DNA of 64,000 nt. It comes from Patescibacteria group bacterium. Lineage in GTDB: Bacteria; Patescibacteriota; Patescibacteriia; JAHJFT01. Under the pieces are notes generated by a model. That model was given only the letters and a program-made list of their open reading frames with translations. It did not search any database and was not told where the DNA came from. The position numbers and the translations under genes are program-made. The DNA lies in contig JAQTTB010000001.1 of assembly GCA_028710985.1 (NCBI GenBank), positions 231,397 to 295,396 on the forward strand, read 5' to 3'. This document shows positions 11,477 through 64,000 of this stretch, piece by piece (position 1 is the first letter of the stretch; every line of letters begins with the position of its first letter).

Positions 11477-11487
11477 ACCAAAATATT

Positions 11488-11931: not shown

Positions 11932-11954
11932 AGACGACGGGGACAAAATCGCTT

Positions 11955-12033
11955 TCACCTCCTCCGCCAACCAAAATATTCAAAATTTTAAGTCGACGTA
12001 GCGGAGCGAAGTCGCTCTCACCTCCTCCGCCAA
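11955..12033 (+). repeat. two extra copies of the tRNA-Ser 3' end plus flank (att-like direct repeats)
   Basis: TCACCTCCTCCGCCAACCAAAATATT at 11955-11980 equals 11462-11487 (tRNA 3' end + CCA + 11 nt flank). A shorter copy, TCACCTCCTCCGCCAA, lies at 12018-12033. Confidence 0.75.
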
Positions 12034-12167
12034 ATTAACAAGTTAGAACCTAAGTAAAATAAGGGTATTTGGACAGCGAAAAGCCGATTTCGTCAGGAAG
12101 TCGGTTTTTTGTATTATTTTTTAACAGGGTGTACAATATAATCAATATATTTTAGTAAAGATAAATT

Positions 12168-12365
12168 ATGCCTACAATCAGTAAAAACATTCGCAAATTA
12201 AGAGAACAAAAAGGTATATCGCAAGATAGGCTTTCAAAACTGGCAAATATCTCTTTGAATACAATCGCAAAACTGGAACTCGACGAAACTCAAAATCCAA
12301 CCATTGAAACTTTGCAGAAAATTGCAAAAGCCCTAGATGTCAAAGTTGAGGATTTAATAAAATAA
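12168..12365 (+). CDS. XRE-family helix-turn-helix transcriptional regulator
   Basis: A 65-aa protein, IRKLREQKGISQDRLSKLANISLNTIAKLE, with a classic Cro/C1-type HTH. Confidence 0.75.
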   Translation: MPTISKNIRKLREQKGISQDRLSKLANISLNTIAKLELDETQNPTIETLQKIAKALDVKVEDLIK

Positions 12366-12369
12366 ATTT

Positions 12370-13488: not shown

Positions 13489-13489
13489 T

Positions 13490-14659: not shown

Positions 14660-14665
14660 AATAAT

Positions 14666-14860
14666 ATGGCAAATCAAACAGACAATAAAATAATGAGTGT
14701 GCCAGAGCAAATATTCGACCAGTTTCTAACGGAATTGGGAGAACAAAAAATACCGGAAGAAGTTATCGCTCGCTTAAGAAAAACTCTTGTAGACAATGGG
14801 CAGATCTCGGTTGATGCTCTCAAACAAGCATTGTTTTACAGTGATAGCACAGATGTATGA
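14666..14860 (+). CDS. small hypothetical protein (64 aa), translationally coupled to the downstream ATPase
   Basis: Its stop overlaps the ATG of the next gene (ATGA at 14857-14860). It is acidic with no known domain. Confidence 0.4.
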   Translation: MANQTDNKIMSVPEQIFDQFLTELGEQKIPEEVIARLRKTLVDNGQISVDALKQALFYSDSTDV

Positions 14861-17331
14861 TTAAGATTGACACAATAAAAATTGAAGAGTTTCGTGGCAT
14901 ACGCAACTTGACACTGGAGTTTAACGGAAAAAATTACGCTGTATGCGGACCAAACGGAACAGGTAAAAGTGGAGTGGTCGATGCTCTAGAGTTTGCTCTT
15001 ACAGGGAATATATCGCGCTTGTCTGGCGAAGGTATGGGTAATGTTTCCGTCAAAGAACACGCACCACATGTCGATAGTAAAAATAATCCCGAAAAAGCTC
15101 GCATAAACATTACATTTAAAATACCAACACTTGAAAATAAGCAAGTGACGCTCGCGAGGACAGTCAAAAATTCTACAACGCCAAGTATAAATCCATCATC
15201 ACCGGAAATACTTGAGATACTTTCACAATTTGATGGGCATCCTGAGTTTGTATTATCTCGACGCGAGATTATTCGGTATGTCATTTCAAAACCGGGCGAC
15301 AGATCAGCGGAAGTTCAGGCACTATTGCGTCTCGATAAAATTGGCGATTTACGGAGCAGTCTACTGACCATATCAAACACATACAGCAAAGAGTCAAAGG
15401 ATTCAAAAAAAGTTCAGGATCAAGCAAGCGAAAGTTTAGCACAAGGTTTGGAAATAACTGATTTGGTTAAAGCAAAGATTTTAGAAGCGGTAAATACAAG
15501 ACGCACTGTTCTCGGCTTAACGTCACTTACGGATTTAACAGCCACGACAGCTTTAAATGATGGATTAGAAACAAGTGTAAAATCTCCGGCTGTGCCGAAA
15601 GTGAATAAGGTTTCGGCAACAGCTGATCTAAAGACTTGGCGAGAGGTATCGCAAAAAATGACGGCTGAAAGTGTGCGGTCGGAGTGTTCAGAGTTGAAAG
15701 ATCAATTAACTGTTTTGAGTAGTAATCCTATTGTTACTGAGAGTGTAACGCGCGAGAAATTTTTACGCTCGGCGATAGATTTTGTAACGGAAGAAGCTTG
15801 TCCCGTTTGTGATACAAAATGGGACATATCTACATTGCAGGGTATTATCCGCTCGAAACTTGAAGGATTTGAAGAAATCACAAAGATGCGCGCTAGCCTT
15901 GAAAATCGGTTGGAACCAATTATAACTCTTGTCGACTCGCTTGATAACGCAACCGCTTTAGCTGAAAAATTAACGAAAGTCTTGACAACTGAACATACGG
16001 CAGGTCTTGCAGCTTATCGAGCAACATTATCGTCATACCGCAAGGCATTGAAAGATTTTTTGCCATTGACGGAAGCTATACCAGCAATTGTAAATATCAC
16101 AGAAATTCCTGCTGACGTAACATCTGCAATTGAAGCGATAGAAAAAGCTGTCGCAATTATTCCAGAGCCAACACAACAAGATGCGGCACGAGATTTTATT
16201 GTGCGAGCACAAGATCGCCTTGAGGCATACAGAAAAGTAGCTCGCGAAGCAGATAAGGCAAAGCAGCGGGCTGATTTATCAAAGAAGGTTTACGACACAT
16301 ATGTAGATATCAGCACCAAAGCGTTGGAGGGTGTTTATAAAGATGTAGAAGGCGAGTTCTCTAAACTGTATCGCTCGGTGAACGGCGAAGACGAGAATAG
16401 TTTTACAGCAAAGCTGGTTCCGTCTATTGGCAAATTAGGTTTTGATGTTGATTTTTATGGACGAGGGCATTTCCCTCCTGGCGCGTATCACAGTGAGGGA
16501 CACCAAGACGCGATGGGGCTTTGTTTGTATCTAGCACTAATGAGAAAACTCCAAGGCACTAATTTCAGATTTGCCGTACTCGACGATGTGCTCATGTCTG
16601 TTGATTCGAATCACCGCCGAGAAGTGTGTAATCTTCTTAAGCAACAATTTCAAGACACTCAATTTATCCTTACAACGCATGATGAAGTATGGTTAAAACA
16701 AATGACGACTGTTGGGCTTATCGCATCAGGAAACGCAACACGCTTTAGCAATTGGACTCCCGACCATGGTCCTGCGGAATGGAAAACGCGCGACGTGTGG
16801 ACTGAAATAGACACTGCTTTGAATGCAAACGATGTTCAATCAGCGGCCAGTCGCCTTCGGTATTATCTGGAGTATGTTTTTAGAGAAGTATGTGACAGCT
16901 TGCGAGCACAAGTTGAGTTTAAGGGTGATGGACGCTATGGGCTTGGGGATACCCTAGCTCCGGCCGTGGCACGCTTTCGTAAGCTTATGGTTGAAGGTAA
17001 AGAGGTTGCGGAATCACGGAGCCAAACTGATGTTGCAAAAGCTCTCCAATTGCAAGAAAAGAACCTTGCAGATTCTTTAGTCGCGACCAACGCTGAACAA
17101 TGGCAGGTTAATCCGGCTATTCACTATAACGAATGGGCGAATCTTTCGGTTAATGATTTTAATCCCGTGGTTGCTACTTTTCGTAATTTGGTGCAAAAAT
17201 TCTTTTGTGAAAAGCCAGAGTGTAGTAGTTTTGTATATTTAACTACGACGCCACCAAAAACGCCGGATGCAGTTCGCTGTAATTGTGGATTGATAAATAT
17301 AAACCTAAAGAAACCGGCGCAGAAAGATTAA
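14857..17331 (+). CDS. SMC/Rad50-like ABC ATPase (AAA_15/AAA_23-type head, long coiled coil, putative CxxC zinc hook)
   Basis: The N-terminal Walker A is GPNGTGKSGVVDALEFAL. The C-terminal Walker B and D-loop are FAVLDDVLMSVD and ILTTHDE. About 450 aa of predicted coiled coil lie between them, carrying CPVCDTKW near the middle. A C-terminal Cys cluster (CEKPECSS...VRCNCG) follows. Confidence 0.8.
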   Translation: MIKIDTIKIEEFRGIRNLTLEFNGKNYAVCGPNGTGKSGVVDALEFALTGNISRLSGEGMGNVSVKEHAPHVDSKNNPEKARINITFKIPTLENKQVTLARTVKNSTTPSINPSSPEILEILSQFDGHPEFVLSRREIIRYVISKPGDRSAEVQALLRLDKIGDLRSSLLTISNTYSKESKDSKKVQDQASESLAQGLEITDLVKAKILEAVNTRRTVLGLTSLTDLTATTALNDGLETSVKSPAVPKVNKVSATADLKTWREVSQKMTAESVRSECSELKDQLTVLSSNPIVTESVTREKFLRSAIDFVTEEACPVCDTKWDISTLQGIIRSKLEGFEEITKMRASLENRLEPIITLVDSLDNATALAEKLTKVLTTEHTAGLAAYRATLSSYRKALKDFLPLTEAIPAIVNITEIPADVTSAIEAIEKAVAIIPEPTQQDAARDFIVRAQDRLEAYRKVAREADKAKQRADLSKKVYDTYVDISTKALEGVYKDVEGEFSKLYRSVNGEDENSFTAKLVPSIGKLGFDVDFYGRGHFPPGAYHSEGHQDAMGLCLYLALMRKLQGTNFRFAVLDDVLMSVDSNHRREVCNLLKQQFQDTQFILTTHDEVWLKQMTTVGLIASGNATRFSNWTPDHGPAEWKTRDVWTEIDTALNANDVQSAASRLRYYLEYVFREVCDSLRAQVEFKGDGRYGLGDTLAPAVARFRKLMVEGKEVAESRSQTDVAKALQLQEKNLADSLVATNAEQWQVNPAIHYNEWANLSVNDFNPVVATFRNLVQKFFCEKPECSSFVYLTTTPPKTPDAVRCNCGLININLKKPAQKD

Positions 17332-17441
17332 ATCTGCTCGGATAAACCTAGCAATTGTTGTTTACTAAAAAGAGAGCCGCCCGCGTCAGCGGACGGGCTT
17401 GTATGCGCGCTAATAGGGATTTTATATAGAATAATCCACCT

Positions 17442-17612
17442 CATCTTTGCCTTTGACCGACTTAGGTTTAGGCGTCTCAAACCACTCCGGATGAACTTCG
17501 TAGATAGCCCTTAATTCCTGTATACTTTTATCAAGATCCTCGAATTTGAGCCATTTTCTTGGTTCAAAGTTCCGGAGATCGTGCCCGCCAAATTATAAAA
17601 AACTAATTACCA
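17442..17612 (-). pseudogene. start-less ORF remnant (...RNFEPRKWLKFEDLDKSIQELRAIYEVHPEWFETPKPKSVKGKDEVDYSI*), a possible gene fragment at the island boundary
   Basis: The open reading frame on the minus strand has no start codon and runs into the 5' region of the 17616 gene. It is too short for the ORF track. Confidence 0.3.
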
Positions 17613-17615
17613 AAT

Positions 17616-18101
17616 ATGTCAGATCAAGAAATTAAATCAACCGGCTGTTGCGAGCCGTTCAATCCCGAACCGTGGCATGAAAAAGAAATTGTCTGGAAAG
17701 ATAAAATTTTTGTCAAAGACTATGTTACGAGTTTTTTGCACATTCCGCTCAATATGGGGAAAAAAATCATAAAAAATATAGCGCTGATTGAAAAAGCCGG
17801 CGCTAAATCCCCGTATCAGCTCATGCTCTGCGACGAAAAATCTCTTTGGGGTTCTGACATTTATATTGATGTTGCGAAAGATGTCCCCGGCGCGCAGATG
17901 GCAAAAATTTCCGGCACTTTCCTAACGAAAGTTTTTGAAGGTCCGTATCAAAACGCCGGCAAATGGGCGGTTGAAATGAATGAATATGTGAAAAACAAAG
18001 ACAAAGAAATTAAAAAATTATATTTTTCTTACACCACCTGCCCAAAGTGCGCCAAGGCTTACGGCAAAAACTACGTGGTGCTCTTCGCGCAGATTGACTA
18101 A
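17616..18101 (+). CDS. hypothetical protein with N-terminal CC and C-terminal CPKC Cys pairs
   Basis: A 161-aa ORF with no confident family assignment. Confidence 0.5.
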   Translation: MSDQEIKSTGCCEPFNPEPWHEKEIVWKDKIFVKDYVTSFLHIPLNMGKKIIKNIALIEKAGAKSPYQLMLCDEKSLWGSDIYIDVAKDVPGAQMAKISGTFLTKVFEGPYQNAGKWAVEMNEYVKNKDKEIKKLYFSYTTCPKCAKAYGKNYVVLFAQID

Positions 18102-41550: not shown

Positions 41551-41625
41551 TGGGGTGACCAGAGGGAATTGAACCCTCGTCATCGGAGCCACAATCCGAT
41601 GCTCTACCATTGAGCTATGGCCACC
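41551..41625 (-). tRNA. tRNA-His (anticodon GTG) with G-1, CCA encoded
   Basis: The minus-strand read is G-GTGGCCA-TA-GCTC-AATGGTA-GAGC-A-TCGGA-TTGTGGC-TCCGA-TGAC-GAGGG-TTCAATT-CCCTC-TGGTCAC-C-CCA. Confidence 0.85.
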
Positions 41626-41655
41626 CAACCACGGACGTTTTTATTTTTAATTAGT

Positions 41656-42417
41656 TTACTCCGCTTTTTTATTTTTATCGTTGTATGTTTCAAACGCACG
41701 CAGGACTTCAAGCGGAATCGCAAAGACAATTGTGTTTGACTGGTCCGAAGAAACATCGTTGATCGTGGAAAGCGTCCGGAGATGAAGCGCGCCCGGACTT
41801 TTGGCGAGCGTCTCCGCCGCCTTGCGCAGATTCTCCGAGGCGGATACTTCACCCTCGGCCTTGATGACCACCGCGCGCCGCTCCCGTTCGGCTTCGGCTT
41901 GCTTGGCGATCACTCTCTGCATGTTCTCCGGCAGGGTGATATCTTTGAGATCGACCGACTGCACTTCAATGCCCCACGGATCAGTTAGCTTTTCAACAAT
42001 GTCCCTGATTTTTTGCGATGCCTCTTCGCGCTTTGAAAGAAGCTCGTCCAAATCCATCTGGCCGCAGACATTTCTCATCGTGGTCTGCGCGAGCTGCGAC
42101 GTGGCGTAGCGGAAATCTTCAACTTCAATAATGGCCTTTTGCGCTTCTTTAACTTTGTAATATATAACCGCGTTTATCTTGGTGGATACATTATCACGGG
42201 TAATGGCTTCCTGAAAAGGCACGTCCGTGGCTTTGACGCGGATATCGACTTTTTGCATGCCCTGAAAAATCGGAAAAACCAGCCGCCATCCCGGCTCCAG
42301 GACTTTTTTATACTTGCCAAGCTGAAATTTCACTCCGCGCTCATACTGCTTTATCTGCCGGATTGAAATCAGAATCACGAAAAGAACTACGCCGACTATC
42401 CAATATAATATATCCAT
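41656..42417 (-). CDS. SPFH/band-7 (stomatin/prohibitin-like) membrane protein
   Basis: An N-terminal TM segment is followed by the SPFH core (VDIRVKATDVPFQEAITRDNVSTKINAVIYYKV) and a C-terminal coiled coil. Confidence 0.8.
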   Translation of the reverse strand: MDILYWIVGVVLFVILISIRQIKQYERGVKFQLGKYKKVLEPGWRLVFPIFQGMQKVDIRVKATDVPFQEAITRDNVSTKINAVIYYKVKEAQKAIIEVEDFRYATSQLAQTTMRNVCGQMDLDELLSKREEASQKIRDIVEKLTDPWGIEVQSVDLKDITLPENMQRVIAKQAEAERERRAVVIKAEGEVSASENLRKAAETLAKSPGALHLRTLSTINDVSSDQSNTIVFAIPLEVLRAFETYNDKNKKAE

Positions 42418-42511
42418 ACATTTAAAATTTAAAATTGAATTAAAATATTATTGAAAAATTTTCCGCCCGAGGCGGATGCGCCTCTGGCGCAAAAATTGCC
42501 CGAAGGGCTGG

Positions 42512-42621
42512 TACGCCCAGTAGGAATCGAACCTACATATCCAGCTTACCTGCCCGCCAGTGCCTCTACCCCCAGTAGGAATCGAACCTACATATCCAGC
42601 TTACCTGCCCGCCAGTGCCTC
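42512..42621 (-). repeat. two tandem 55-bp units, each a tRNA-Arg 3' half (anticodon-stem 3' strand to acceptor end) plus a 24-nt flank (CCTGCCCGCCAGTGCCTCTAC-containing)
   Basis: cccagtaggaatcgaacctacatatccagcttacctgcccgccagtgcctctac is repeated. The outermost copy ends in the acceptor TGGGCGT rather than TGGGGGT. Confidence 0.7.
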
Positions 42622-42693
42622 TACCCCCAGTAGGAATCGAACCTACATATCCAGCTTAGAAGGCTGGTGTTCTATCCATTGAACTATAGGGGC
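42622..42693 (-). tRNA. tRNA-Arg (anticodon TCT)
   Basis: The minus-strand read is GCCCCTA-TA-GTTC-AATGGATA-GAAC-A-CCAGC-CTTCTAA-GCTGG-ATAT-GTAGG-TTCGATT-CCTAC-TGGGGGT-A. The acceptor stem has two G-U pairs. Confidence 0.7.
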
Positions 42694-42712
42694 ACAGGCC
42701 ATGGCAGGCGGG

Positions 42713-42747
42713 GAAGGCTGGTGTTCTATCCATTGAACTATGGGCGC
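42713..42747 (-). pseudogene. isolated tRNA-Arg 5' half (acceptor GCGCCCA through the anticodon loop CTTC), complementary to the outermost 3' half at 42512-42545
   Basis: GCGCCCATAGTTCAATGGATAGAACACCAGCCTTC is followed by the linker CCCGCCTGCCATGGCCTGT (revcomp CCATGGCAGGCGGG, also seen at 52420). Confidence 0.5.
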
Positions 42748-42758
42748 ATAAATTTTTT

Positions 42759-42830
42759 TGCCCCCGAGAGGAATTGAACCTCTATTTAGAGCTTAGGAGT
42801 CTCCCGTTCTATCCGTTGAACTACAGGGGC
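42759..42830 (-). tRNA. tRNA-Arg (anticodon CCT)
   Basis: The minus-strand read is GCCCCTG-TA-GTTC-AACGGATA-GAAC-G-GGAGA-CTCCTAA-GCTCT-AAAT-AGAGG-TTCAATT-CCTCT-CGGGGGC-A. There is one A-G mismatch at the base of the anticodon stem. Confidence 0.6.
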
Positions 42831-42839
42831 ATGATTCAA

Positions 42840-43070
42840 CTATCGCCTTGACAATCTTTTTACTTTTCTTTTTTTAATAAACCTTTCTCTGCGATAGGCC
42901 TCTTCAATACTATCAAATTCTTCGATTCTGGCAATCTTCCATGGCTTAAATGCCGAAGTATATCGGGATAATCCATTATTATGCTGAGCCAATCTTCTTT
43001 TTATATTATTTGTAACTCCAACATAATAACTGCCATTTTTTAAACTTTCTAGAATATATAGAAAATGCAT
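42840..43070 (-). CDS. GIY-YIG nuclease family protein (UPF0213-like)
   Basis: MHFLYILESLKNGSYYVGVTNNIKRRLAQHNNG...EEAYRRERFIKK. The ORF ends 9 nt before the tRNA-Arg(CCT) 5' end, on the same strand. Confidence 0.8.
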   Translation of the reverse strand: MHFLYILESLKNGSYYVGVTNNIKRRLAQHNNGLSRYTSAFKPWKIARIEEFDSIEEAYRRERFIKKRKVKRLSRR

Positions 43071-43083
43071 CTTTAAAATATTA

Positions 43084-43190
43084 GAAGACCTCTATTGTAT
43101 CCATTGAATCCCGACGTTCCGCCGCAGGCGGAAGTCGGGATCCCGACCCCCCGACCCCGCGGGCGTCGGGGCGTCGGGACTACAGGGGCG
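43084..43190 (-). pseudogene. degenerate tRNA-Arg 5' fragment (GCCCCTGTAGT ... TTCAATGGATA ... CTTCTAA) split by a ~70-bp GC hairpin insertion, immediately upstream of the GIY-YIG start
   Basis: The minus-strand read is CGCCCCTGTAGT-[cccgacgcc...gtcggga hairpins]-TTCAATGGATACAATAGAGGTCTTCTAATATTTTAAAG-ATG(GIY-YIG). This is the same layout as at 11069-11140. Confidence 0.45.
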
Positions 43191-43228
43191 AAAAAACGCT
43201 CTAAATATAGCACAAAATTAATACACTG

Positions 43229-44179
43229 TCAATCATCGCGCCGCTGTTTTCCGTGGAATGCCTGATGGACCTCGCGGAGCTGCTTATTCGTGATATGGGT
43301 ATATATCTGCGTCGTGGTGATTGACGAATGCCCGAGCATTGACTGCACCGAACGGATGTCCGCTCCGTTCATCAAGAGATCCGTGGCGAACGAATGGCGC
43401 AGAGTATGCGGCGATACATGCTTGGTAATGCCGGCGGCTTTGCTGTAGCGCTCAATCAGTCGCTGGATGCTCCGCGGCGTGAGCCGCGCGTCTTTTTCGG
43501 ACGCGGCCGCTGCGCCCTTGGCCCGGTCGTGACGCACAAAAAACGCCGGATGCGCGTCATTTCGTTTTTTCAGATATTCATGGAGCCAAAATTTCGCCTG
43601 ATTGGATAAAAACACCACGCGCGTCTTTGAACCCTTGCCGCGAACCGTGAATTCATCGCGGTCAAGATTCACGTCTTCAATATCCAGGCCCACGAGCTCG
43701 GAAACGCGCATGCCGGTTGAAAATAAAAGTTCAAGAATGGCGCGGTCGCGTTTGGCGATGATCTCCGGCTGTTTTAATTTCTGCGGCTGCTCAATCAGGC
43801 GGTCCAAATCTCCGCCTTCCAAAAAATCAACCTGCCGGTCCGGCATTTTCGCGAGCTCAATCTTTTCCGCCGGCATGGTCTTGATGTCCCGCTTGGCCAG
43901 ATACTTGAGCCAGGCGCGGAGCGCGATGAGATGATAATTCTGCGTTGATTTGGAAAGCGGCTGTTTAAATTTGTCTTCCATCCGGTTGAGATAAAGCCGG
44001 AAATCGCGCACCCGGTCGGCGGTGATCTCCTCGGGCTTGGCGATCTTGGCCCAATCCAAAAATCTCTGAAGATAAAATTCGTAATTCGCCCGCGTCCGCC
44101 GGCTCCGGCCTTTTTCAATTTCAAGATAATCAAGAAAATCACCAAGCAGCTGCTGAATTTTTGTTGTCGGCTTTGCCAT
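43229..44179 (-). CDS. tyrosine recombinase, XerC/XerD family (could also be an integrase for the adjacent tRNA-linked repeats)
   Basis: The N-terminal core-binding domain is followed by C-terminal HTLRHSFATDLLMNGADIRSVQSMLGHSSITTTQIYTH, which carries the R...HxxR...Y catalytic motifs. Confidence 0.85.
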   Translation of the reverse strand: MAKPTTKIQQLLGDFLDYLEIEKGRSRRTRANYEFYLQRFLDWAKIAKPEEITADRVRDFRLYLNRMEDKFKQPLSKSTQNYHLIALRAWLKYLAKRDIKTMPAEKIELAKMPDRQVDFLEGGDLDRLIEQPQKLKQPEIIAKRDRAILELLFSTGMRVSELVGLDIEDVNLDRDEFTVRGKGSKTRVVFLSNQAKFWLHEYLKKRNDAHPAFFVRHDRAKGAAAASEKDARLTPRSIQRLIERYSKAAGITKHVSPHTLRHSFATDLLMNGADIRSVQSMLGHSSITTTQIYTHITNKQLREVHQAFHGKQRRDD

Positions 44180-44649: not shown

Positions 44650-44869
44650 TTACCTGCCGGTTTCCCCCTGCCCTGCCTATCTCGCCCCCGCCTCGGGAGT
44701 GAGATTTTTTTATCTGTTTTAAAGGGCCAGTCTTGACAAAAGTGCTAATTTATGATATAATTTCCCGTTAAATTGGAGGAGTGCTTTACCTGGGCAGATT
44801 AAAGATTTGAAGCCTTCTTCCAATCTTTAATTCGCCCTTTTTTATTAACTTCCACAAGGAGAGGATATA

Positions 44870-45583
44870 ATGGCCTACACCGAAGAGCACGCCCGCGCCG
44901 AAAACCTTGGTCTTGCGACCGGACTCGGTATCATCGGGCTCGTGATTCTCCTCGGCATCGTCTGGGGTGTCGGCAGCCTATACGCCGCCTCCCAGGAGTG
45001 GAAGCACTCATTCAAGACCCCGACCCGTCAGCAGACCGCGGCTCCCCGGATCGCCATCGCTCCCCCCGCCTCGACCGCCACCAGTGCTTTCCAGGATTCC
45101 CGTTGCATCGGCAACCCCTGGAGCCAGCCCGCCGCCGACGCATTCGGCGTCCCCGAGCCGCTCCTCGGATGCATGCACTACGCGGAGACCCGTTGCGGCA
45201 CCGGCGGCCTAGTAGAAGGCGGCTATCAGGCAGTGACGGCCGTCAAGAATCTCCCCCGGCCCGTAACGAACGCTCAAGCGCTCGCCAAGATCGCGACTCA
45301 CATCGGTGTTCCGATCGAAGACATGCGCTCCAACCGCGTCGGCGCCATGGGCCCGTTCCAATTCGTTCCCGCCACCTGGCTCGCTTACGCGGCCGACGGC
45401 GACCGCGACGGCATCGCGAGCCCCTACGATCTGGCGGATGCGACGTTCACCACCGCGAATCATCTTGCCCAAGCCCATGCCAAACGCGGCAACTGGGCCA
45501 AGGTGCTCCACGGCTGGAACCGGAGCCACAGTCCGCAGGTCAAGAAGAACATCCGTAACATTCTCGCCTGCGCCGGCCTCTAA
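44870..45583 (+). CDS. lytic transglycosylase-like (SLT/lysozyme-like domain) membrane-anchored protein
   Basis: An N-terminal TM segment and a Pro/Ala-rich linker are followed by GAMGPFQFVPATW...DGDRDGIASPYDLADATFT, which is the transglycosylase motif. Confidence 0.6.
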   Translation: MAYTEEHARAENLGLATGLGIIGLVILLGIVWGVGSLYAASQEWKHSFKTPTRQQTAAPRIAIAPPASTATSAFQDSRCIGNPWSQPAADAFGVPEPLLGCMHYAETRCGTGGLVEGGYQAVTAVKNLPRPVTNAQALAKIATHIGVPIEDMRSNRVGAMGPFQFVPATWLAYAADGDRDGIASPYDLADATFTTANHLAQAHAKRGNWAKVLHGWNRSHSPQVKKNIRNILACAGL

Positions 45584-46668: not shown

Positions 46669-46747
46669 GTGAATCAGTTAATCAGTGAATCGGGCAAAAC
46701 GCCTTAATATAAACCTGATTAACCGATTACCTGATTCACTGATTAAC
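46669..46747. repeat. imperfect inverted repeat of TGAATC/GATTCA units (ggtgaatcagttaatcagtgaatcgg ... ccgattacctgattcactgattaac) upstream of the NYN gene
   Basis: The arms share the 15-nt core GTTAATCAGTGAATC in inverted orientation, about 30 nt apart. Confidence 0.55.
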
Positions 46748-46756
46748 ATTAAACAT

Positions 46757-47347
46757 ATGATTATACGACCAGATCAGCGAATCGGCGTTTTCATTGATGT
46801 GCAGAATCTTTATTACTCGGCGCGCAATCTTTTCGGCGCCAAAGTGAATTTTGGAAATATCGTTACCACCGCGGTCGGCGGACGCAAACTCATCCGGGCA
46901 ATCGCCTATGTGGTGAGCACGCCGTCCGGCGAAGAAAAACCATTCTTTGAAGCCTTATATCATCTGGGCATTGAAACCCGCGAAAAAGAATTGCAGGAAT
47001 TTTTCGGCGGCGCGAAAAAAGCCGACTGGGATGTCGGCCTCGCGGTTGACGCCATCCGCATCGCCGAACTTCTTGACGTCGTGGTGCTGGTTTCCGGCGA
47101 CGGCGATTACTGCCCGCTCGTGGAATATCTCAAGGGCCGCGGCCGCCAGGTTGAAATCGCGGCTTTCGGCGAAACAACTTCATCCCGCCTCAAAGAAATG
47201 GCCGACGAATTCATTGACTTGAGCAAAGACCCCGGCAACTTCCTGATCCGCCCGAAATCCGCAAATCGTCGCAATCAAAATCCAAAATCCAAAACCTGCC
47301 TGCCGGCAGGCAAGGTCCAAAATCCAAAATTTAATAATAAATATTAA
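46757..47347 (+). CDS. NYN-domain (LabA/DUF88-like, PIN-related) protein
   Basis: RIGVFIDVQNLYYSAR...VVLVSGDGDYCPLVEYL carries the GDGDY signature. The start is set at MIIRPDQ. The C-terminal tail reads through the CCTGCC palindrome. Confidence 0.75.
   Translation: MIIRPDQRIGVFIDVQNLYYSARNLFGAKVNFGNIVTTAVGGRKLIRAIAYVVSTPSGEEKPFFEALYHLGIETREKELQEFFGGAKKADWDVGLAVDAIRIAELLDVVVLVSGDGDYCPLVEYLKGRGRQVEIAAFGETTSSRLKEMADEFIDLSKDPGNFLIRPKSANRRNQNPKSKTCLPAGKVQNPKFNNKY
47295..47315. repeat. variant copy of the 20-bp palindrome (CCTGCCTGCCGGCAGGCAAGG), flanked by direct repeats TCCAAAATCCAAAA
   Basis: The 14-bp direct repeats lie at 47281-47294 and 47316-47329. Confidence 0.8.
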
Positions 47348-47350
47348 TCT

Positions 47351-49612
47351 ATGTCGCAAAAGTTCAACATCGATTGGGCCGGACACAATATGGAAATTGA
47401 GATCGGCCGATTAGCAGGACAAGCCAACGGCAGCTGCACCGTGCGCTACGGCGACGCGGTCGTGCTCGGCACCGCCGTCATGGCGCATCAGCCGCGCGAG
47501 GGCATTGATTTTTTGCCCCTCACGGTTGAATACGAAGAACGCCTTTATGCCGCCGGCAAAATCAAAGGCTCGCGCTTCATCAAGCGCGAAGGCCGTCCGT
47601 CCGACGAGGCGGTTCTCACCGGCCGTTTTATTGACCGCGCCATCCGGCCGCTTTTTGATAAAAAAATACGCAATGAAATCCAGGTCATCGTGACCGTGCT
47701 TTCGGTTGACGGAGAGAACGACCCTGATGTCCCGGCCATGGTTGCCGCCTCCACCGCGCTCATGATTTCCGACATTCCCTGGAATGGTCCGGTTGCCTTT
47801 ATCCGCGTCGGACAGATTGAAGGCGAATGGGTTTTGAACCCGACCTACGAAGCGCGCGAAAAAAGCCTTCTGGATCTCGCCGTCGCCGGCACGCCGGAGC
47901 GGGTCATCATGCTTGAGGCCGGCGCCAATCAGGTTGACGAAGAAACCGCGATTAAGGCTATTGAATTCGGGCAGAAGCATCTTAAAGACGTCATCGGCCT
48001 GATTTCCAAAGTCGCCGAAGCCGTGGGCAAACCGAAAATTAAAATTTCCCAAGAGCCGGAAGACGAAGAAGCCCGGCTCGCCCTTGAAGAACAGAAAAAA
48101 ATCATCAGCTTAGCTGAAGAATTTCTGAAAGAAAAAATTCAAACCGCGCTGTTTGATATTCCAAAAGCAAGTAAAGTCGAGCGCAAAGAATCCATAAAAA
48201 TTCTTGAGGATGAGCTGGACGAGCATCTCAAGGCCCAGCAAATCGGCAAAGACAAGAGAAAAATCGGACTCGCGCATGTGTACGAATTCGTGGAACAAGA
48301 AGTGTCGCGCGCCATTCTGGAGCAGGAAAAACGCGTTGACGGCCGCACGCTCACTGAAATCCGACCGCTTTCCGCCGAAGTCTCCATTCTGCCGCGCACT
48401 CATGGCTCGGCGCTTTTCCAGCGCGGCGCGACCCAGTCGCTTTCGGTTGTCACTCTCGGCGCTCCGGGCGATGAACAAACCCTTGAAGGCATGGAAATAA
48501 ACGGAAAAAAACACTACATGCACCATTATAATTTTCCGCCCTATTGCGTCGGTGAAACCGGCCGCATGGGTTCGCCGGGTCGCCGCGAAATCGGCCATGG
48601 CGCACTCGCGGAAAAAGCCCTGGTGCCGGTTCTGCCGACCCGCGAAGAATTTCCTTACACCATCCGCGTGGTCTCCGAAACCCTTTCATCCAACGGCTCG
48701 AGCTCCATGGCCGCGACCTGCGGCTCAACGCTCGCTTTGATGGACGCCGGCGTTCCGCTTAAAGAACCCGTCGCCGGAATCGCCATGGGCCTTGCGGCAA
48801 ACGAAAACGGAGACTTTAAAATCCTTACCGATCTTCAGGACCTGGAAGATTCGCCCGGCGGCATGGACTTTAAAATCGCCGGCACGCGTAACGGCATCAC
48901 CGCAATTCAGATGGATACCAAGACCAAAGGCTTGTCACCCGACATTATCCGTAAGACAATCACGCAGGCCCGCGACGCCCGCCTCAAGATTCTTGATGTC
49001 ATGCTTGCCGCCATTCCCGAACCGCGTAAAGAGCTCTCGCCGTTTGCGCCGCGCATTATCACAATCCATATCAACCCGGATAAAATCCGCGACGTCATCG
49101 GTCCGGGCGGAAAAATCATCAATGAAATCATTGACAAAACCGGCGTCCAGATTGATATTGAACAGGACGGCTCGGTATTTATCACCTCGGCCGACGAAGA
49201 CGGCGCCAGGCGCGCGATTGAATGGATTGAAGGCCTCACCGCCGAACCGGAAATCGGCAAAACCTACAAAGGCAAAGTCGTGCGCCTGCTTGATTTCGGC
49301 GCCTTTGTCCAGTTTATGCCCAACACCGACGGCTTGATTCATGTTTCTGAACTCGCGCCGTGGCGCGTAGAACGGGTCACCGACGTAGTGAACATCGGCG
49401 ACGAAGTAACAGTAAAAGTAATTGAAATCGATGACCAGGGACGCGTGAATCTTTCGCTCCGCCAGGCTGAGGGCTATACTGCTCCGCCCAAACCCGAAGG
49501 CGCGATCGATCACCCAACCGGCGGATTCTCCCACCGCAGTGACCGACCGGATCGCGGCAGTCGTGACCGCAACGGACGAAGCGGCGGACGCGGCTTCTTC
49601 AAGCGAAGATAA
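47351..49612 (+). CDS. pnp: polynucleotide phosphorylase / polyadenylase
   Basis: There are two RNase PH domains (GSSSMAATCGSTLALMDAGVP), KH and S1 domains (GKVVRLLDFGAFVQF), and a C-terminal Arg/Gly-rich tail. Confidence 0.92.
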   Translation: MSQKFNIDWAGHNMEIEIGRLAGQANGSCTVRYGDAVVLGTAVMAHQPREGIDFLPLTVEYEERLYAAGKIKGSRFIKREGRPSDEAVLTGRFIDRAIRPLFDKKIRNEIQVIVTVLSVDGENDPDVPAMVAASTALMISDIPWNGPVAFIRVGQIEGEWVLNPTYEAREKSLLDLAVAGTPERVIMLEAGANQVDEETAIKAIEFGQKHLKDVIGLISKVAEAVGKPKIKISQEPEDEEARLALEEQKKIISLAEEFLKEKIQTALFDIPKASKVERKESIKILEDELDEHLKAQQIGKDKRKIGLAHVYEFVEQEVSRAILEQEKRVDGRTLTEIRPLSAEVSILPRTHGSALFQRGATQSLSVVTLGAPGDEQTLEGMEINGKKHYMHHYNFPPYCVGETGRMGSPGRREIGHGALAEKALVPVLPTREEFPYTIRVVSETLSSNGSSSMAATCGSTLALMDAGVPLKEPVAGIAMGLAANENGDFKILTDLQDLEDSPGGMDFKIAGTRNGITAIQMDTKTKGLSPDIIRKTITQARDARLKILDVMLAAIPEPRKELSPFAPRIITIHINPDKIRDVIGPGGKIINEIIDKTGVQIDIEQDGSVFITSADEDGARRAIEWIEGLTAEPEIGKTYKGKVVRLLDFGAFVQFMPNTDGLIHVSELAPWRVERVTDVVNIGDEVTVKVIEIDDQGRVNLSLRQAEGYTAPPKPEGAIDHPTGGFSHRSDRPDRGSRDRNGRSGGRGFFKRR

Positions 49613-51006: not shown

Positions 51007-51149
51007 TCCAAAGGCAAAACAACTTTTTTTCGCTAAAAATATAGGCGCAGTGGATAACTCTGTGTATATAAACAGGCTTATCCACACCCCCAGGATTTTG
51101 CCAAAACCCTGACAACGCAAAAATGCCATTTTTTGGCTAAGTTAAGCGC

Positions 51150-51178
51150 TTGACAACTGAACAAAAATGTGATACAAT
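51150..51178 (+). promoter_or_regulatory. consensus sigma70 promoter (TTGACA-17-TACAAT) with no ORF downstream for ~430 bp
   Basis: TTGACAactgaacaaaaatgtgaTACAAT. Confidence 0.55.
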
Positions 51179-51184
51179 AATAGT

Positions 51185-51525
51185 ACAGAATAGTACTTTA
51201 CCATCTATCCCTGGAGGTAAATCTGTCTCGAGACAGGATAGTCTCCTCTCTATAGCTGATCTATAACGCACAATAAAACAAAAATAAAAGAAGCCTTTCG
51301 TGGTAACCCTGGGGTATTTCCGGGGCAATGCCTCTAGATCGGCAATAGAGTTCTTTCTAGACGTCGGTTGATTATCCTCCGTCGGGAGTCGGTTTTTGGC
51401 GCCAATGCCTGTTTGCGCTAAAAAGTGGCTCCCGAACCGGAGGTATATCGTCGTCTCCGGAGCATGGAGCCACTACAAATCATTCAACATTGATAATAGG
51501 GCCTCACCATGCTCCGTTTTATTTT
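51185..51525 (+). ncRNA. candidate structured non-coding RNA of unknown class (~340 nt, promoter-to-terminator unit, no ORF on this strand)
   Basis: It is bounded by the promoter at 51150-51178 and a 3' hairpin (GGAGCATGG...CCATGCTCC) plus gTTTTaTTTT at 51459-51525. Several internal hairpins are visible (tatagCTGATctata, ccggagGTATATCGTCGTctccgg, ctctaGATCGGCAAtagag). Confidence 0.4.
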
Positions 51526-51612
51526 GCCAAAATTACCAAAAAAAGCCTCATCCCGTGCCTTGACTAATCAAACCCGGGCTTGTATAATTTCCTGTATAAT
51601 ATAAATTAGAAT

Positions 51613-51984
51613 ATGGACCAGGAATTTATAAAACAAATCAAGAAAAACCTTGAAACCGAGCGCACCCGTCTCGAAGAAGAGCTCAAGGAATTCACCACCA
51701 AGAACAAGCACAATCCCGAGGATTATAACGCTGAATTTCCCCAGCTCGGCGACAAGGAAGATGAAAACGCGAACGAAGTCGCTCTATACAGCGATAATTT
51801 GACGCTGGAACGCACTTTGGAAAAGTCGCTCCGCGACGTTGTTAAGTCCCTGGAACGCATTGAAAAGGGCGAATACGGCATCTGCAAATACTGCGGCAAG
51901 GAAATATCTAAAGAGCGGCTGCTCGCCCGGCCGACTTCTAGCGCATGCATCGAATGCAAAAAAGTCCTGACCCAAGAACTCTAA
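51613..51984 (+). CDS. DksA/TraR-family C4-type zinc-finger protein
   Basis: An N-terminal coiled coil is followed by CKYCGKEISKERLLARPTSSACIECK, which supplies the four Cys. Confidence 0.7.
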   Translation: MDQEFIKQIKKNLETERTRLEEELKEFTTKNKHNPEDYNAEFPQLGDKEDENANEVALYSDNLTLERTLEKSLRDVVKSLERIEKGEYGICKYCGKEISKERLLARPTSSACIECKKVLTQEL

Positions 51985-62634: not shown

Positions 62635-62648
62635 TAACTAAAATATTA

Positions 62649-62682
62649 AAAAAACTTAGAAGAATTTTTCTAAGTTTTTTTA
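62649..62682. terminator. bidirectional rho-independent terminator
   Basis: aaaaaaaCTTAGAAgaatttTTCTAAGttttttt. Confidence 0.7.
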
Positions 62683-62688
62683 ATATAG

Positions 62689-62880
62689 TTATGTCAGGCC
62701 GATCTGCTTCCTGATCTTTTCAATCTCCCGCTGGTCGCGGCTTGCCATACCGTCTTCCCTCACTTTTCGCGATCTTTTCTTGAGGTCGCGTAACTTTGCC
62801 TGAAGCGAGATTAACTCCGTCTCTATTCCTAGAAGTCTTTTGCGGTATTCTTCGCGTTTTTTCGCGGTCATTTTTGCCAT
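62689..62880 (-). CDS. small hypothetical coiled-coil protein
   Basis: A 63-aa basic ORF. Confidence 0.35.
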   Translation of the reverse strand: MAKMTAKKREEYRKRLLGIETELISLQAKLRDLKKRSRKVREDGMASRDQREIEKIRKQIGLT

Positions 62881-62960
62881 ATACGCCTAGTATATCATAT
62901 TTTCCGAATTTCCGGACAGCAATTGACGGTTTTCGTATTTTCGGCTATACTCCACCCAAT

Positions 62961-64000
62961 ATGCCATACACATTTCAAAAACTTCCAAAATCATGCGCTG
63001 AATTTTCATTCACCATTCCGGTTGACGAAATCCAGCCGTTTTTAATACAGGCGGCCGAACGGCTCTCGCAAAAATCAACCATCCCCGGCTTCCGCCCGGG
63101 CAAAGCGCCCTACGACATGATCATGAAGCGCTTTGGCGAAATGGCGATCTGGGAAGAGGCGCTTGAACACATCGTGCGCAAACATTACGCCAACGCGCTC
63201 GCGGCCGAAAGCCTGGAGACCATCGGTTCGCCGGAAATCAACGTGGAAAAGCTCGCGCCCGGCAATCCGCTTGCCTTCAAAATTAAAACTTCCCTCGTCC
63301 CGGAGATTGATAAGCTCGCGGACTATTCCGTAAAAAAATTTGACCGCAAAACCCCGGAGATTGAGGACAAAAAAATTGATAAAGTGATTGAAGACGTCCG
63401 TAAAATGCAGACCAAGGAAAAATTGGTTGACCGCCCGGCCACCGCCGCCGACAAAGTCGTGATTGAAATGGAAATGACGCAGAACGGCGTCATTATGGAG
63501 GGCGGCAAGAGCCCGAATTTCCAGGTCTACCTCGCCGAGGAAAATTACATACCCGGCCTGACCCGGGAACTTGTGGGATTAAAATCCGGCGATGAAAAAA
63601 AATTCACCTTAAAATTTCCGGACCAGCATTTTCAAAAAAGCATGCAGGGAAAAAATGTTGATTTCCGCGTCAAAGCGACTGGAGTATACGAACTCGAACC
63701 CCCGGAGATTAACGACGAATTCGCAAAAACCATGGGCCAGCCCGATCTCGCGGCAATGAAAAAACTCATCCGCGAGAATCTCGTGAACGAAGCCGCGGAA
63801 GAAGAAGAGCGCCGGCTTGAACGCGCCATCTTTGACGATCTGATCTCCGCGAGCCGCTTCGGCGACATGCCCGACTTGCTGGTGAACGAGGAAATCAACA
63901 AAATGCTTCACGAGCTTGAACACAATGCCGAGCACCAGGGCATGAAGTTTGAAGACTATCTCGCGAGCATCAAAAAAACCGTCGCCGACCTCAAAATTGA
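62961..64000 (+). CDS. tig: trigger factor (partial; the C-terminus lies beyond the window)
   Basis: MPYTFQKLPKSCAEFSFTIP...GFRPGKAPYDMIMKRFG is the trigger-factor N-terminal ribosome-binding signature. The frame stays open to the window end. Confidence 0.85.
   Translation, partial: MPYTFQKLPKSCAEFSFTIPVDEIQPFLIQAAERLSQKSTIPGFRPGKAPYDMIMKRFGEMAIWEEALEHIVRKHYANALAAESLETIGSPEINVEKLAPGNPLAFKIKTSLVPEIDKLADYSVKKFDRKTPEIEDKKIDKVIEDVRKMQTKEKLVDRPATAADKVVIEMEMTQNGVIMEGGKSPNFQVYLAEENYIPGLTRELVGLKSGDEKKFTLKFPDQHFQKSMQGKNVDFRVKATGVYELEPPEINDEFAKTMGQPDLAAMKKLIRENLVNEAAEEEERRLERAIFDDLISASRFGDMPDLLVNEEINKMLHELEHNAEHQGMKFEDYLASIKKTVADLKI

Follow-up and report, generated by a model that had tools for sequence, protein, structure and literature searches.

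What fills the largest non-coding gap in this stretch of Patescibacteria DNA, an RNA in its own right or a long leader of the gene that follows? In the window, by which we mean the whole 64,000-nucleotide stretch analyzed, the gap runs from 51007 to 51612, and its 606 bp agree with the exceptional intergenic gap of about 600 bp described in the original prediction; the apparent gap at 62635-63608 is larger, but is occupied by a gene cut off by the end of the window. The call of dksA at 51613 was correct, a zf-dskA_traR domain being found in 51613-51984. The central proposal, that an independently transcribed structured noncoding RNA (ncRNA) lies upstream of this gene, is supported by a conserved promoter, the fold, a 3' hairpin followed by a T-run, compensatory changes and the absence of codon periodicity. 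Positions 51185-51525 of the + strand encode a structured ncRNA that has its own near-consensus promoter and intrinsic terminator and no coding potential.

51150-51178, + strand: ncRNA promoter of the sigma-70 type, TTGACA, 17 bp, TG-n-TACAAT (extended -10), an 11/12 match with a predicted start near 51185
51185-51525, + strand: predicted primary transcript of the ncRNA, about 341 nt, its ends predicted, called from promoter and terminator positions, fold, homologs and the lack of a coding signal
51560-51588, + strand: the separate promoter of dksA, TTGACT-17-TATAAT, 24 nt 5' of the ATG
51613-51984, + strand: dksA/traR-family zinc-finger gene with a zf-dskA_traR domain (Pfam PF01258, E = 1e-8), the conserved downstream neighbor of the ncRNA

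Transcription, folding and coding potential

The TTGACA-17-TACAAT promoter had been placed correctly at 51150-51178, and the TG of an extended -10 is present, but the assertion that it is the best promoter match in the window did not hold, because a 12/12 match lies at 44733 (+). There are ten 11/12 matches in the window, among them the ncRNA promoter and the dksA promoter at 51560. An equivalent promoter occupies the equivalent place in 34 of the 53 sequences checked (33 of 51 DksA loci and the window).

The region had been described as rich in hairpins, and its structure is far above that of dinucleotide shuffles: the + strand has a minimum free energy of -131.1 kcal/mol compared with -88.5 +/- 5.6 for the shuffles (z = -7.55), and none of 100 shuffles folded as well. 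The - strand also folds better than its dinucleotide shuffles (z = -4.86). We assign the RNA to the + strand because of the + strand fold score, the + strand promoter and terminator, and an invariant U-G pair in the core helix, which on the opposite strand would be C-A.

As stated earlier, the + strand is free of ORFs of 60 aa or longer from the RNA promoter to dksA, the longest ones there being 55 and 38 aa. The alignment of RNA homologs displays neither codon periodicity nor codon-position bias, its indels are of 1, 2, 4, 5 and 7 nt and not multiples of three, and no conserved ORF was found in the RNA, where all ORFs are shorter than 60 aa. Two coding candidates were rejected. The - strand ORFs at 51137-51328 of the window and 2426-2734 of locus L001 share only a 29-aa patch that corresponds to a conserved nucleotide block, and a 22-24-aa ORF 3' of the A-rich tract described below is not conserved.

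Homologs and covariation

Three sources supplied the sequences compared: 51 Patescibacteria loci retrieved by way of DksA, the window itself, and one metagenome contig (L052), the single extra relative recovered by a metagenome scan with the 21-mer GACAGGATAGTCTCCTCTCTA. When the window RNA was compared with the loci by blastn and nhmmer, only L001 was alignable by sequence and the syntenic nhmmer matches were weak, which is why a covariance-model approach was taken. The core covariance model, R1, matches the window at 51239-51359 (68.1 bits, E = 3e-17) and detects the RNA 5' of dksA in 23 of the 51 DksA loci, in L052 and in the window, always in synteny and on the + strand; it finds five sequences that were not in its seed, with E values of 4e-13 to 1e-3. 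Around ten further loci possess a variant RNA of matching layout. Sequence comparison places a conserved RNA family in MAGs of the Parcubacteria group of Patescibacteria (Uhr-, Falkow-, Magasanik- and Buchananbacteria types), with pnp on one side and dksA on the other.

Covariation in the related intergenic regions had been suggested as a check, and when examined, the helices proved to be kept by compensatory changes. Among the window, L001 and L052 there are 97 consensus pairs, 92.4% of them paired, with 27 compensatory changes compared with 1-5 in slid controls. The family-wide long-range helix, which closes domain 1 as described below (25 sequences, 13 pairs), is 96.9% paired, against 44-58% in slid controls; nine of its 13 pairs have changed on both sides, and none of 500 shuffles reaches the observed values. 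In the variant family, 19 of 48 pairs are compensatory. Infernal gives no match to a known family, yet the region is clearly conserved in relatives.

Architecture of the RNA

51219-51240, + strand: hairpin P2, AAAUCUGUC / GACAGGAUA, 9 mostly invariant pairs in the most conserved block of the window clade
51248-51350, + strand: domain 1, closed by long-range helix P3 (51248-51263 with 51335-51350) and enclosing the A-rich tract and a hairpin at 51302-51332
51275-51290, + strand: invariant single-stranded A-rich tract, AAAACAAAAAUAAAAG (family form ACAAAAAYAAAA), unpaired in all consensus folds
51359-51456, + strand: domain 2, with closing helix P4 (51359-51368 with 51447-51456) around the long hairpin P5 (51376-51402 with 51415-51443)
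51458-51525, + strand: 3' hairpin P6 and intrinsic terminator, a 10-bp GC-rich stem, asymmetric internal loop, GCC/GGC stem and AU-rich loop of about 25 nt, followed by UUUUAUUUU

In the consensus architecture, a 5' region with a UUCUUU-type motif precedes two domains, each closed on its own, and an independent 3' hairpin; the 5' and 3' ends are unpaired. In domain 2, 3 of the 10 pairs of P4 and 16 of the 27 pairs of P5 are compensatory, counted over three sequences only, and an equivalent second domain is present in the variant family. The long stem and T-run reported earlier are the terminator: GGAGCATGG/CCATGCTCC lie inside 51458-51467 and 51507-51516, and TTTTATTTT follows at 51517-51525. 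A module of the P6 type closes the RNA in about 30 loci, with stems that differ from locus to locus (GGGCGCAAC, AAGGCGAUC, GGCGCGAG and others).

The exact ACAAAAAYAAAA motif is found 300-500 nt 5' of dksA in about 23 of 51 loci, where it forms invariant columns of the family alignment, and A-rich repeats are expanded in L019, L020, L029 and L045. Only about half of the family has the tract in its invariant state; given the variant form, a shorter and less conserved A-run, the tract may not be a universal functional core.

Several further interactions were considered and set aside. Pairing of the A-rich tract with the 3' U-tail is a perfect 9 bp in the window, without covariation in L001, L052 and L004. 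Neither pairing of UUCUUU with AAAGAA nor a triplex on the AAGAA strand is conserved across clades, and the CCUCC part of a possible mimic of the 16S 3' end (anti-SD) at GGUUGAUUAUCCUCC covaries away in L001 and L052.

A separate transcription unit or a dksA leader?

Could the RNA nevertheless act in cis? The fallback offered with the original prediction was a long leader or riboswitch of dksA. In such an arrangement, transcription would terminate at the 3' hairpin and read through conditionally into dksA-lspA-comM, making the RNA an attenuator or sensor, triggered for example by the loading of Nus factors at boxA-like sites or by the binding of a ligand or protein. The geometry is suggestive: the RNA is on the dksA strand and directly upstream, its terminator ends just 88 nt before the dksA ATG, and control of downstream protein genes such as suhB and rpsJ by Nus/boxA elements is known (PMC5725501). 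The two are adjacent in all of the loci examined, and the linkage persists where the gene upstream of the RNA differs, but all DksA-linked loci were fetched through DksA, so that the linkage is in part a product of sampling and appears stronger than it is. The promoter that follows the terminator weakens the leader explanation. In 27 of 35 RNA-bearing loci, compared with 8% of shuffles, a match of at least 10/12 follows the RNA terminator and precedes dksA, and the window has one of its 11/12 matches there. Because dksA has this separate promoter, we regard the ncRNA as its own transcription unit and not simply as a dksA leader; some read-through of the terminator into dksA may still occur. 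In the window clade no alternative antiterminator pairing is evident, since the inner stem merely extends the 3' stem; with 300-400 nt and two autonomous domains, the RNA is far larger than known attenuators; and no riboswitch or leader family was matched in 23 members with Rfam at E<=10. A cis-acting leader is therefore unlikely.

Relationship to known RNA families

Rfam 15 at the gathering score returned only tRNAs from the window and 20 loci. At E<=10, a search of the 751-nt window region and 22 loci, in which scores below about 13 bits would not appear, produced only scattered chance matches, none recurring at the RNA. RNase P models (RF00010 and the others) gave no match at either threshold in the window region and 22 loci, ARAGORN found no tmRNA in the window or 29 loci, and no Rfam tmRNA, SRP or 6S model matched any of 23 members at E<=10. 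Sequence hallmarks agree. In 24 members the best approximations to RNase P CR-I (GGAAAGUCCGG) and CR-V (ACAGAAnnCGGCUUA) have on average 3.7 and 4.8 mismatches compared with 3.8 and 4.7 in shuffled sequences, the best matches to the tmRNA T-arm GGUUCGAnUCC are no better than those of shuffles, and matches to the SRP domain IV motif (GGAAGCAGCC with a GNAR loop) equal shuffles. The Infernal/Rfam scan advised at the outset thus assigned none of the 23 members to a known family, and the earlier view that the RNA is not tmRNA, RNase P, SRP or 6S stands on hallmarks, Rfam and ARAGORN alike.

Might it still be a known housekeeping RNA that has diverged strongly, RNase P RNA being the foremost candidate? 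Rfam thresholds do miss RNase P RNA in some CPR genomes, 10 of 35 circular ones having no match at default thresholds (Lui et al. 2021, PMC8172020). The size would fit, the window clade's CAGGAUAGUCUCCUCUC resembles CR-I GAGGAAAGUCCGGGCUC at 11 of 17 positions, and GGAGC, as read from the sequence, could make a P4-like pairing with a bulged U. However, conservation of the CR-I-like block ends with the three closest sequences, GGAGC belongs to the 3' hairpin, whose covarying 5' strand it forms, the relaxed Rfam searches match no housekeeping RNA, and the hallmark matches above are no better than those of shuffles. With separately closed domains and unpaired termini, the fold is unlike both RNase P (P1, P4 pseudoknot) and the 6S rod. 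We consider a diverged housekeeping RNA scarcely credible. In full-text literature searches on CPR/Patescibacteria RNAs we met no account of such an RNA; the one result on a CPR RNA that they retrieved was the diverged RNase P RNA (PMC8172020).

Putative control elements upstream of the RNA promoter

51049-51057, - strand: DnaA box with 1 mismatch, TTATCCACT (AGTGGATAA on the + strand), about 100 bp 5' of the -35
51078-51086, + strand: perfect DnaA box, TTATCCACA, about 70 bp 5' of the -35
51129-51149, + strand: T-rich, partly palindromic operator-like element, TTTTTTGGCTAAGTTAAGCGC (family consensus TTTTGGCTAAnnTTAGCCAAAA), abutting the -35

Across the 51 loci, 98 DnaA boxes (<=1 mismatch) fall in the two 200-bp bins 5' of the RNA promoter, compared with about 0.05 per 200 bp elsewhere, so that they are enriched about 30-fold there, at a constant distance from the -35. 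Between 2 and 10 boxes lie within 150-200 bp 5' of the promoter in about 40 of the 51 loci (10 in L029, 6 in L015, 5 in L020), and the spacing of roughly -70/-100 from the -35 is common to the window, L001 and the L004 group. The operator-like element emerged when the sequences preceding 35 RNA promoters were aligned (34 loci including L052, and the window) and takes the form of a perfect palindrome in L017, L027 and L033. Such an arrangement suggests that DnaA and at least one other DNA-binding factor would control transcription of the ncRNA.

DnaA boxes also raise the possibility that the cluster is a replication origin or a DnaA-titrating site, and that the transcript is an activating or primer-type RNA associated with the origin. 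A cluster of boxes is indeed present, with two in the window and up to ten elsewhere, some loci, the L004 group for instance, have an AT-rich spacer, and neither dnaA nor dnaN is among the window ORFs tested. Yet the window has just those two boxes, its spacer (51087-51149) is about 46% GC and not AT-rich, the flanking genes are co-directional and not divergent in most loci, and GC skew, taken in 2-kb windows, keeps its negative sign to the left and right of 51 kb, over at least 18-60 kb, without an inflection. The fixed distance from box to -35 is what promoter control would be expected to produce, and an origin leaves the covarying RNA structure unexplained. We find an origin-type function very improbable; oriC itself was rejected for want of a skew inflection and of dnaA or dnaN nearby among the ORFs tested.

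boxA-like motifs

51193-51203, + strand: 5'-proximal boxA-like motif, GUACUUUACCA, family core G-N-U/A-C-N-U-U, the window copy having 2 mismatches to GYTCTTTAANA
51350-51360, + strand: second boxA-like motif, GUUCUUUCUAG, in the linker between domains 1 and 2, the window copy having 3 mismatches to GYTCTTTAANA

The published boxA consensus is GYTCTTTAANA (PMC5725501). It is matched perfectly in L019 and L035 and with 1 mismatch in L005, L014, L016, L020, L021 and L046, and a boxA-like core lies within 50 nt after the -10 in 30 of 34 family promoters compared with a background of 6.9%. Seventeen members, about half of the family, read CAUU and not CUUU at the motif, which in several members is the loop of a short covarying hairpin and not a linear element. 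The second motif is directly 3' of P3 in 13 of 23 family members checked, as well as in the window and in L052, where it reads GCUCUUU; it may instead pair with GGAGG at 51213-51217 (5 bp, with wobble changes only). The boxA identity of these motifs, read from sequence, is uncertain. As boxA elements they would recruit NusB/S10 and the rest of the Nus factors, in the manner known from rRNA operons and CRISPR arrays, and this recruitment would shield the long untranslated transcript from Rho and help the long-range helices to form.

Two more specific trans-acting roles follow the same lines: a 6S- or Ms1-like RNA that binds RNA polymerase, or a decoy that sequesters NusB/S10 and so keeps them from rRNA transcription. 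Like Ms1, the RNA has 300-400 nt; it has a strong rRNA-like promoter whose heavy regulation suggests a growth-state signal, it adjoins the gene for the RNA polymerase-binding factor DksA, and each molecule would offer a decoy one or two boxA-like motifs. However, the Rfam 6S models found nothing at E<=10, two separately closed domains with a terminal hairpin are not an end-paired rod with a large central bubble, and the decoy would depend on a boxA identity that is itself in doubt. Either role strikes us as distinctly unlikely.

Possible function and significance

The reading that we prefer, with a probability of about one half, is that of a novel, stable, independently transcribed structured ncRNA of about 340 nt that belongs to an uncatalogued family and would act in trans under DnaA control. 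The mature RNA would be a protein-binding regulator or scaffold that would probably make its contacts through the invariant single-stranded A-rich tract and the AU-rich loop at the 3' end. It would most plausibly link growth or replication status to the transcription/translation machinery; its fixed neighbor dksA encodes a regulator that binds RNA polymerase. An RNA of 300-400 nt that is retained in a genome of roughly 1 Mb, and that has a consensus promoter together with DnaA boxes, further operators and possible Nus sites, must matter to the cell.

Large, widely conserved structured RNAs without an assigned function are rare, and OLE, GOLLD, ROOL, raiA and 6S have repeatedly opened new biology. 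A large part of bacterial diversity belongs to the Patescibacteria, whose genomes are minimal and whose RNA biology is almost unexplored. The uncatalogued RNA described here is a candidate for a new class of bacterial RNA and a concrete target for metatranscriptomics, structure determination and work in the few cultivable relatives. A more ambitious proposal, which we put forward tentatively and would not yet bet on, is that it represents a stable-RNA class specific to a large branch of the Patescibacteria and built like a miniature rRNA operon, with an rRNA-type promoter, boxA-like Nus sites and two domains behind long-range closing helices. Wired to DnaA and to at least one further operator-binding factor, it would serve as a global regulator or RNP scaffold that couples replication and growth state to transcription or translation in minimal cells. 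If true, this would be the first stable RNA with Nus antitermination that is neither rRNA nor CRISPR; the ncRNA offers a way to learn whether stable regulatory RNAs, too, come under Nus/boxA antitermination and DnaA control.

Comparison with known systems

The diverged RNase P RNA of CPR bacteria (Lui et al. 2021, PMC8172020) is likewise a CPR RNA of about 350 nt that falls below Rfam gathering thresholds, but the present family is without the CR-I/CR-V core, P1 closure and P4 pseudoknot, and without a sub-threshold RF00010 match at E<=10. With 6S and Ms1 RNA the ncRNA shares a promoter of the abundant-RNA type, a size similar to that of Ms1 and a plausible growth-phase role beside the gene for an RNA polymerase-binding factor; unlike them, it is not a rod with a central bubble, its ends are unpaired and it has no Rfam match. 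Its invariant single-stranded AAC-AAA-AAC/U-AAA tract and terminator U-tail are reminiscent of A-rich protein-sponge RNAs (CrcZ) or of Hfq class II sRNAs of the ChiX type, which have an (ARN)n tract and a 3' U-tail, although the ncRNA is much larger and more structured and the tract is weaker in the variant family.

The layout also recalls the leader and spacer of rRNA operons, in which a boxA antitermination site is followed by a long-range processing helix: the promoter is strong, UP-like and of the extended -10 type, one boxA-like motif comes a few nucleotides after the start and a second lies between the two domains, and a long-range helix closes each domain, with GYTCTTTAANA perfect in two members. 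The cargo differs, being 80-100 nt and not 16S/23S rRNA, with no match to an rRNA model; half of the ncRNA motifs read CAUU, some of them in hairpin loops, and Nus binding is putative.

Unlike raiA motif RNA and OLE RNA, the ncRNA has no match in Rfam 15, and its phylum is the Patescibacteria; we know of no description of DnaA boxes or boxA-like motifs for either of those RNAs. Like both of them, it is several hundred nucleotides long, has its own promoter and terminator and a fixed gene neighbor, here dksA, and combines many covarying helices with invariant single-stranded nucleotides.

A predicted RNA gene upstream of dksA

What occupies the long non-coding stretch ahead of dksA, which at 51613 encodes a DksA/TraR zinc finger? 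The original prediction, a structured RNA with its own promoter and terminator, is largely borne out. The intergenic gap described as exceptional measures 606 bp; no true non-coding gap in the window exceeds it, the sole larger apparent one holding a gene cut by the window end, and its + strand open reading frames span just 25-55 aa, in keeping with the claim that none of 60 aa or more precedes dksA. The consensus promoter is present (TTGACA-17-TACAAT with an upstream TG at 51150-51178, 11/12 matches), but it is not the best match in the window, as had been stated, there being a 12/12 match at 44733 and about ten at 11/12. The terminal long stem and T-run also exist: CGGAGCATGG (51458-51467) pairs with CCATGCTCCG (51507-51516) and is followed by TTTTATTTT. 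The minimum free energy of 51185-51525 (+) is -131.1 kcal/mol, versus -88.5 +/- 5.6 in dinucleotide-preserving shuffles (z = -7.55; 0/100 shuffles as good), and the - strand folds more weakly (z = -4.86). The predicted anatomy is listed here.

Predicted features of the RNA in the window (all + strand)
about 51185: predicted transcription start
51193-51203: GUACUUUACCA, in a largely unpaired 5' region
51219-51240: hairpin P2
51248-51263 with 51335-51350: P3, closing helix of domain 1
51275-51290: AAAACAAAAAUAAAAG, single-stranded, inside domain 1
51302-51332: internal hairpin of domain 1
51350-51360: linker carrying GUUCUUUCUAG
51359-51368 with 51447-51456: P4, closing helix of domain 2
51376-51443: hairpin P5, 27 bp, 16 pairs compensatory
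51458-51516: 3' hairpin P6
51517-51525: U-run

In P6, a GC-rich stem of 10 bp leads through an asymmetric internal loop to a GCC/GGC stem with an AU-rich loop of ~25 nt; the same type of 3' module is found in about 30 loci with quite different stem sequences.

Covariation and the wider family

A DksA protein search, one genome per species, gave 51 loci, all from Patescibacteria (CPR) MAGs titled Uhr-, Falkow-, Magasanik-, Buchananbacteria, Parcubacteria or "Patescibacteria group". In the closest, L001 (DksA identity 76%), the whole element is alignable, promoter included, and a metagenome scan with a 21-mer of the most conserved block added one further relative, L052. When these homologous intergenic regions were checked for covariation, the three sequences gave a consensus fold of 97 pairs, with standard pairs in 92.4% of cells, versus 38-46% when partners were slid by 1-3 columns, and compensatory, both-side changes in 27/97 pairs, versus 1-5 in slid controls and 11.3 +/- 2.6 in shuffles, 0/500 of which reached 27. 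No codon periodicity was found in the substitutions among the three, and internal indels in their alignment are of 1, 2, 4, 5 or 7 nt. Open reading frames on the - strand were rejected as genes, their common part being short and reflecting a block conserved at the nucleotide level. Together, the covariation, the lack of periodicity, the indel sizes and the shortness of this shared part argue that the element is an RNA read from the + strand.

Sequence search alone gave weak matches only, all at one syntenic position; conserved blocks emerged on aligning the regions upstream of dksA, where the exact motif ACAAAAAYAAAA lies 300-500 nt from the gene in about 23/51 loci. An alignment of 19 core sequences contains a long-range helix, CUUCUCUACU... 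with ...GGUAGAGGAG, of 13 pairs, 8 of them compensatory. The covariance model of this core, domain 1, has a single match in the window (51239-51359, 68 bits, E = 5e-17) and also matches 23 DksA-linked loci and L052, always at the syntenic position and on the + strand, recovering five non-seed sequences (L019, 4e-13; L003, 3e-7; L046, 9e-6; L005, 2e-5; L029, 1e-3). Across the 25-sequence model alignment the core helix is 96.9% paired with both-side changes in 9/13 pairs, values reached by 0/500 shuffles, slid controls being far lower; if the opposite strand were read, its invariant U-G pair would become C-A, which again indicates the + strand.

About ten loci (L015, L018, L021, L023, L026, L027, L033-L035 and L040) carry a divergent variant at the same place, which keeps the same promoter, 5' motif and long-range helix with invariant ACU...GGU, has a GGGUA...UACCC hairpin followed by AYAAG, and ends in a second domain with its own closing helix and a 3' hairpin of the same kind (consensus fold of 48 pairs, 19 compensatory). 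Lineage-specific insertions of 40-130 nt occur inside hairpins of family members, in the domain-1 hairpin of L005 (2543-2690), 5' of the A-tract in L003 (2404-2509) and in the 5' hairpin of L011-L013, a pattern familiar from the expansion segments of functional structured RNAs.

Comparison with known RNAs

At the gathering score, Rfam 15 found only four tRNAs in the window; at E<=10, the element region and 22 related loci gave nothing meaningful, with no family recurring at the RNA position, and ARAGORN found no tmRNA. Because Rfam thresholds are known to miss some CPR RNase P RNAs (Lui et al. 2021, PMC8172020), hallmark motifs were tested directly: in 24 members, neither RNase P CR-I or CR-V nor the tmRNA T-arm or SRP domain IV was matched better than by shuffled sequence. 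The CR-I-like block CAGGAUAGUCUCC of the window and its two closest relatives was set aside as an RNase P signature, not being kept across the family. CAGGAUAGUCUCCUCUC (51234-51250) resembles CR-I at 11/17 positions, and GGAGC (51460-51464) could make a P4-like pairing with a bulged U; this resemblance is judged coincidental, since only the three closest sequences show it and the covarying 3' hairpin contradicts it. The two ends of this RNA do not pair with each other, unlike those of RNase P RNA, and its fold is not of the 6S type, a rod with a central bubble. Full-text literature searches and look-ups in individual papers brought up no description of a comparable RNA in Patescibacteria. The family is broad, absent from Rfam 15, without the tested RNase P, tmRNA or SRP sequence hallmarks and without the 6S rod fold, and we put the probability that it is a real, novel structured RNA gene family at about 90%.

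Relation to dksA and gene neighborhood

The gene order is pnp, a variable hypothetical gene, the RNA, dksA, lspA and comM; pnp is a conserved upstream anchor in 23 loci, and in several the RNA-dksA pair persists where the upstream gene differs or is inverted, a linkage sampled through DksA itself. Could the element instead be a long 5' leader or riboswitch of dksA, as was first offered as an alternative? A second promoter, TTGACT-17-TATAAT (51560-51588, 11/12), lies 24 nt before the dksA ATG, and a promoter of at least 10/12 stands between RNA terminator and dksA in 27/35 RNA-bearing loci, versus 8% of shuffled spacers, which argues that the RNA is not just a dksA leader, although terminator read-through into dksA may contribute. 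With the equivalent promoters of relatives, the 5' UTR of dksA is 20-120 nt long; in L026, an additional spacer of ~250 nt containing a long inverted repeat separates the RNA from dksA.

Elsewhere in the window, a gene for an NYN-domain protein (predicted RNase) and one for polynucleotide phosphorylase form an RNA-metabolism pair upstream of the element (46685-49612). The only perfect 12/12 sigma-70 consensus promoter, TTGACA-17-TATAAT with TG (44733-44761), has an SLT-domain transglycosylase gene downstream (44870-45583). What looks like an acquired defence island, 11387-18101, directly follows tRNA-Ser: its GC is low (37-43%), its GC skew is reversed, and its genes specify an EcoRI-type adenine methylase, a GmrSD-like nuclease and an SMC/AAA ATPase. 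A - strand tRNA-His/Arg/Arg cluster, preceded by a small ORF, GIY-YIG-like by eye, and a tyrosine recombinase (43229-44179), may mark the edge of an integrated element (41551-44179).

The region upstream of the RNA promoter

DnaA boxes with at most one mismatch are ~30-fold concentrated in the 400 bp preceding the RNA (98 among the 51 loci, versus about 0.05 per 200 bp elsewhere), forming a conserved cluster about 400-800 bp upstream of dksA with two boxes in the window, AGTGGATAA (51049-51057) and a perfect TTATCCACA (51078-51086), and as many as 10 in L029. In several clades the boxes keep constant positions relative to the -35, near -70 and -100. Such a cluster could mark oriC, but GC skew has no inflection at 51 kb of the window and the genes flanking the RNA are mostly co-directional; we therefore give an origin low probability and read the boxes as putative sites of promoter control or DnaA titration. 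In most loci a conserved operator-like palindrome, TTTTGGCTAAnnTTAGCCAAAA, directly adjoins the -35 (51129-51149 in the window; L017, L027, L033, L040 and others). In variant loci, TTTGTATACACTAGTGTATACAAA, a perfect palindrome of 22-24 bp absent from the window, occurs once or twice 100-250 bp upstream of the RNA start (L015, L018, L021, L023, L026, L027, L033, L034, L035, L040, L041), often with one copy beside a DnaA box and one beside the -35. Comparative analysis delineates a conserved, structured, non-coding RNA of two predicted domains, independently promoted and terminated, behind an elaborate and conserved upstream region.

boxA-like motifs and a possible mode of action

Within 50 nt after 30/34 promoters lies the motif G-N-U/A-C-N-U-U (6.9% background), which is similar to boxA, where NusB/S10 bind in rRNA antitermination complexes. 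A second copy lies between the two domains in 13/23 members checked, and L052 and the window have it too. Several copies are themselves the loop of a short hairpin that covaries, and half of the family has CAUU at the motif. The GUUCAUUGAAAAC of L018 and L023 is close to the Firmicutes-type boxA. L019 and L035 match the published boxA consensus GYTCTTTAANA (PMC5725501) perfectly, six others have one mismatch to it, and the window copies have 2-3. We rate the use of boxA and Nus factors by the RNA at slightly below even odds.

How might the RNA act? DnaA and another operator-binding factor would tune its transcription, and the mature RNA may be a trans-acting regulator or scaffold that binds protein, its likely contact sites being the AU-rich 3' loop and the invariant A-tract, which is (ARN)4-like. 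We regard this trans-acting role as the most likely of the mechanisms considered, though at less than even odds, and any link to RNA polymerase/DksA, Nus factors, S1, PNPase or an Hfq-like protein is speculative. The RNA is clearly important in these minimal genomes, and the finding bears on both RNA biology and CPR biology. By analogy with rRNA operons and CRISPR arrays, the boxA-like sites could load Nus factors that would shield the long untranslated transcript from Rho and chaperone its long-range helices; with a boxA-like site ahead of each helix-closed domain, this RNA would be a miniature of an rRNA operon.
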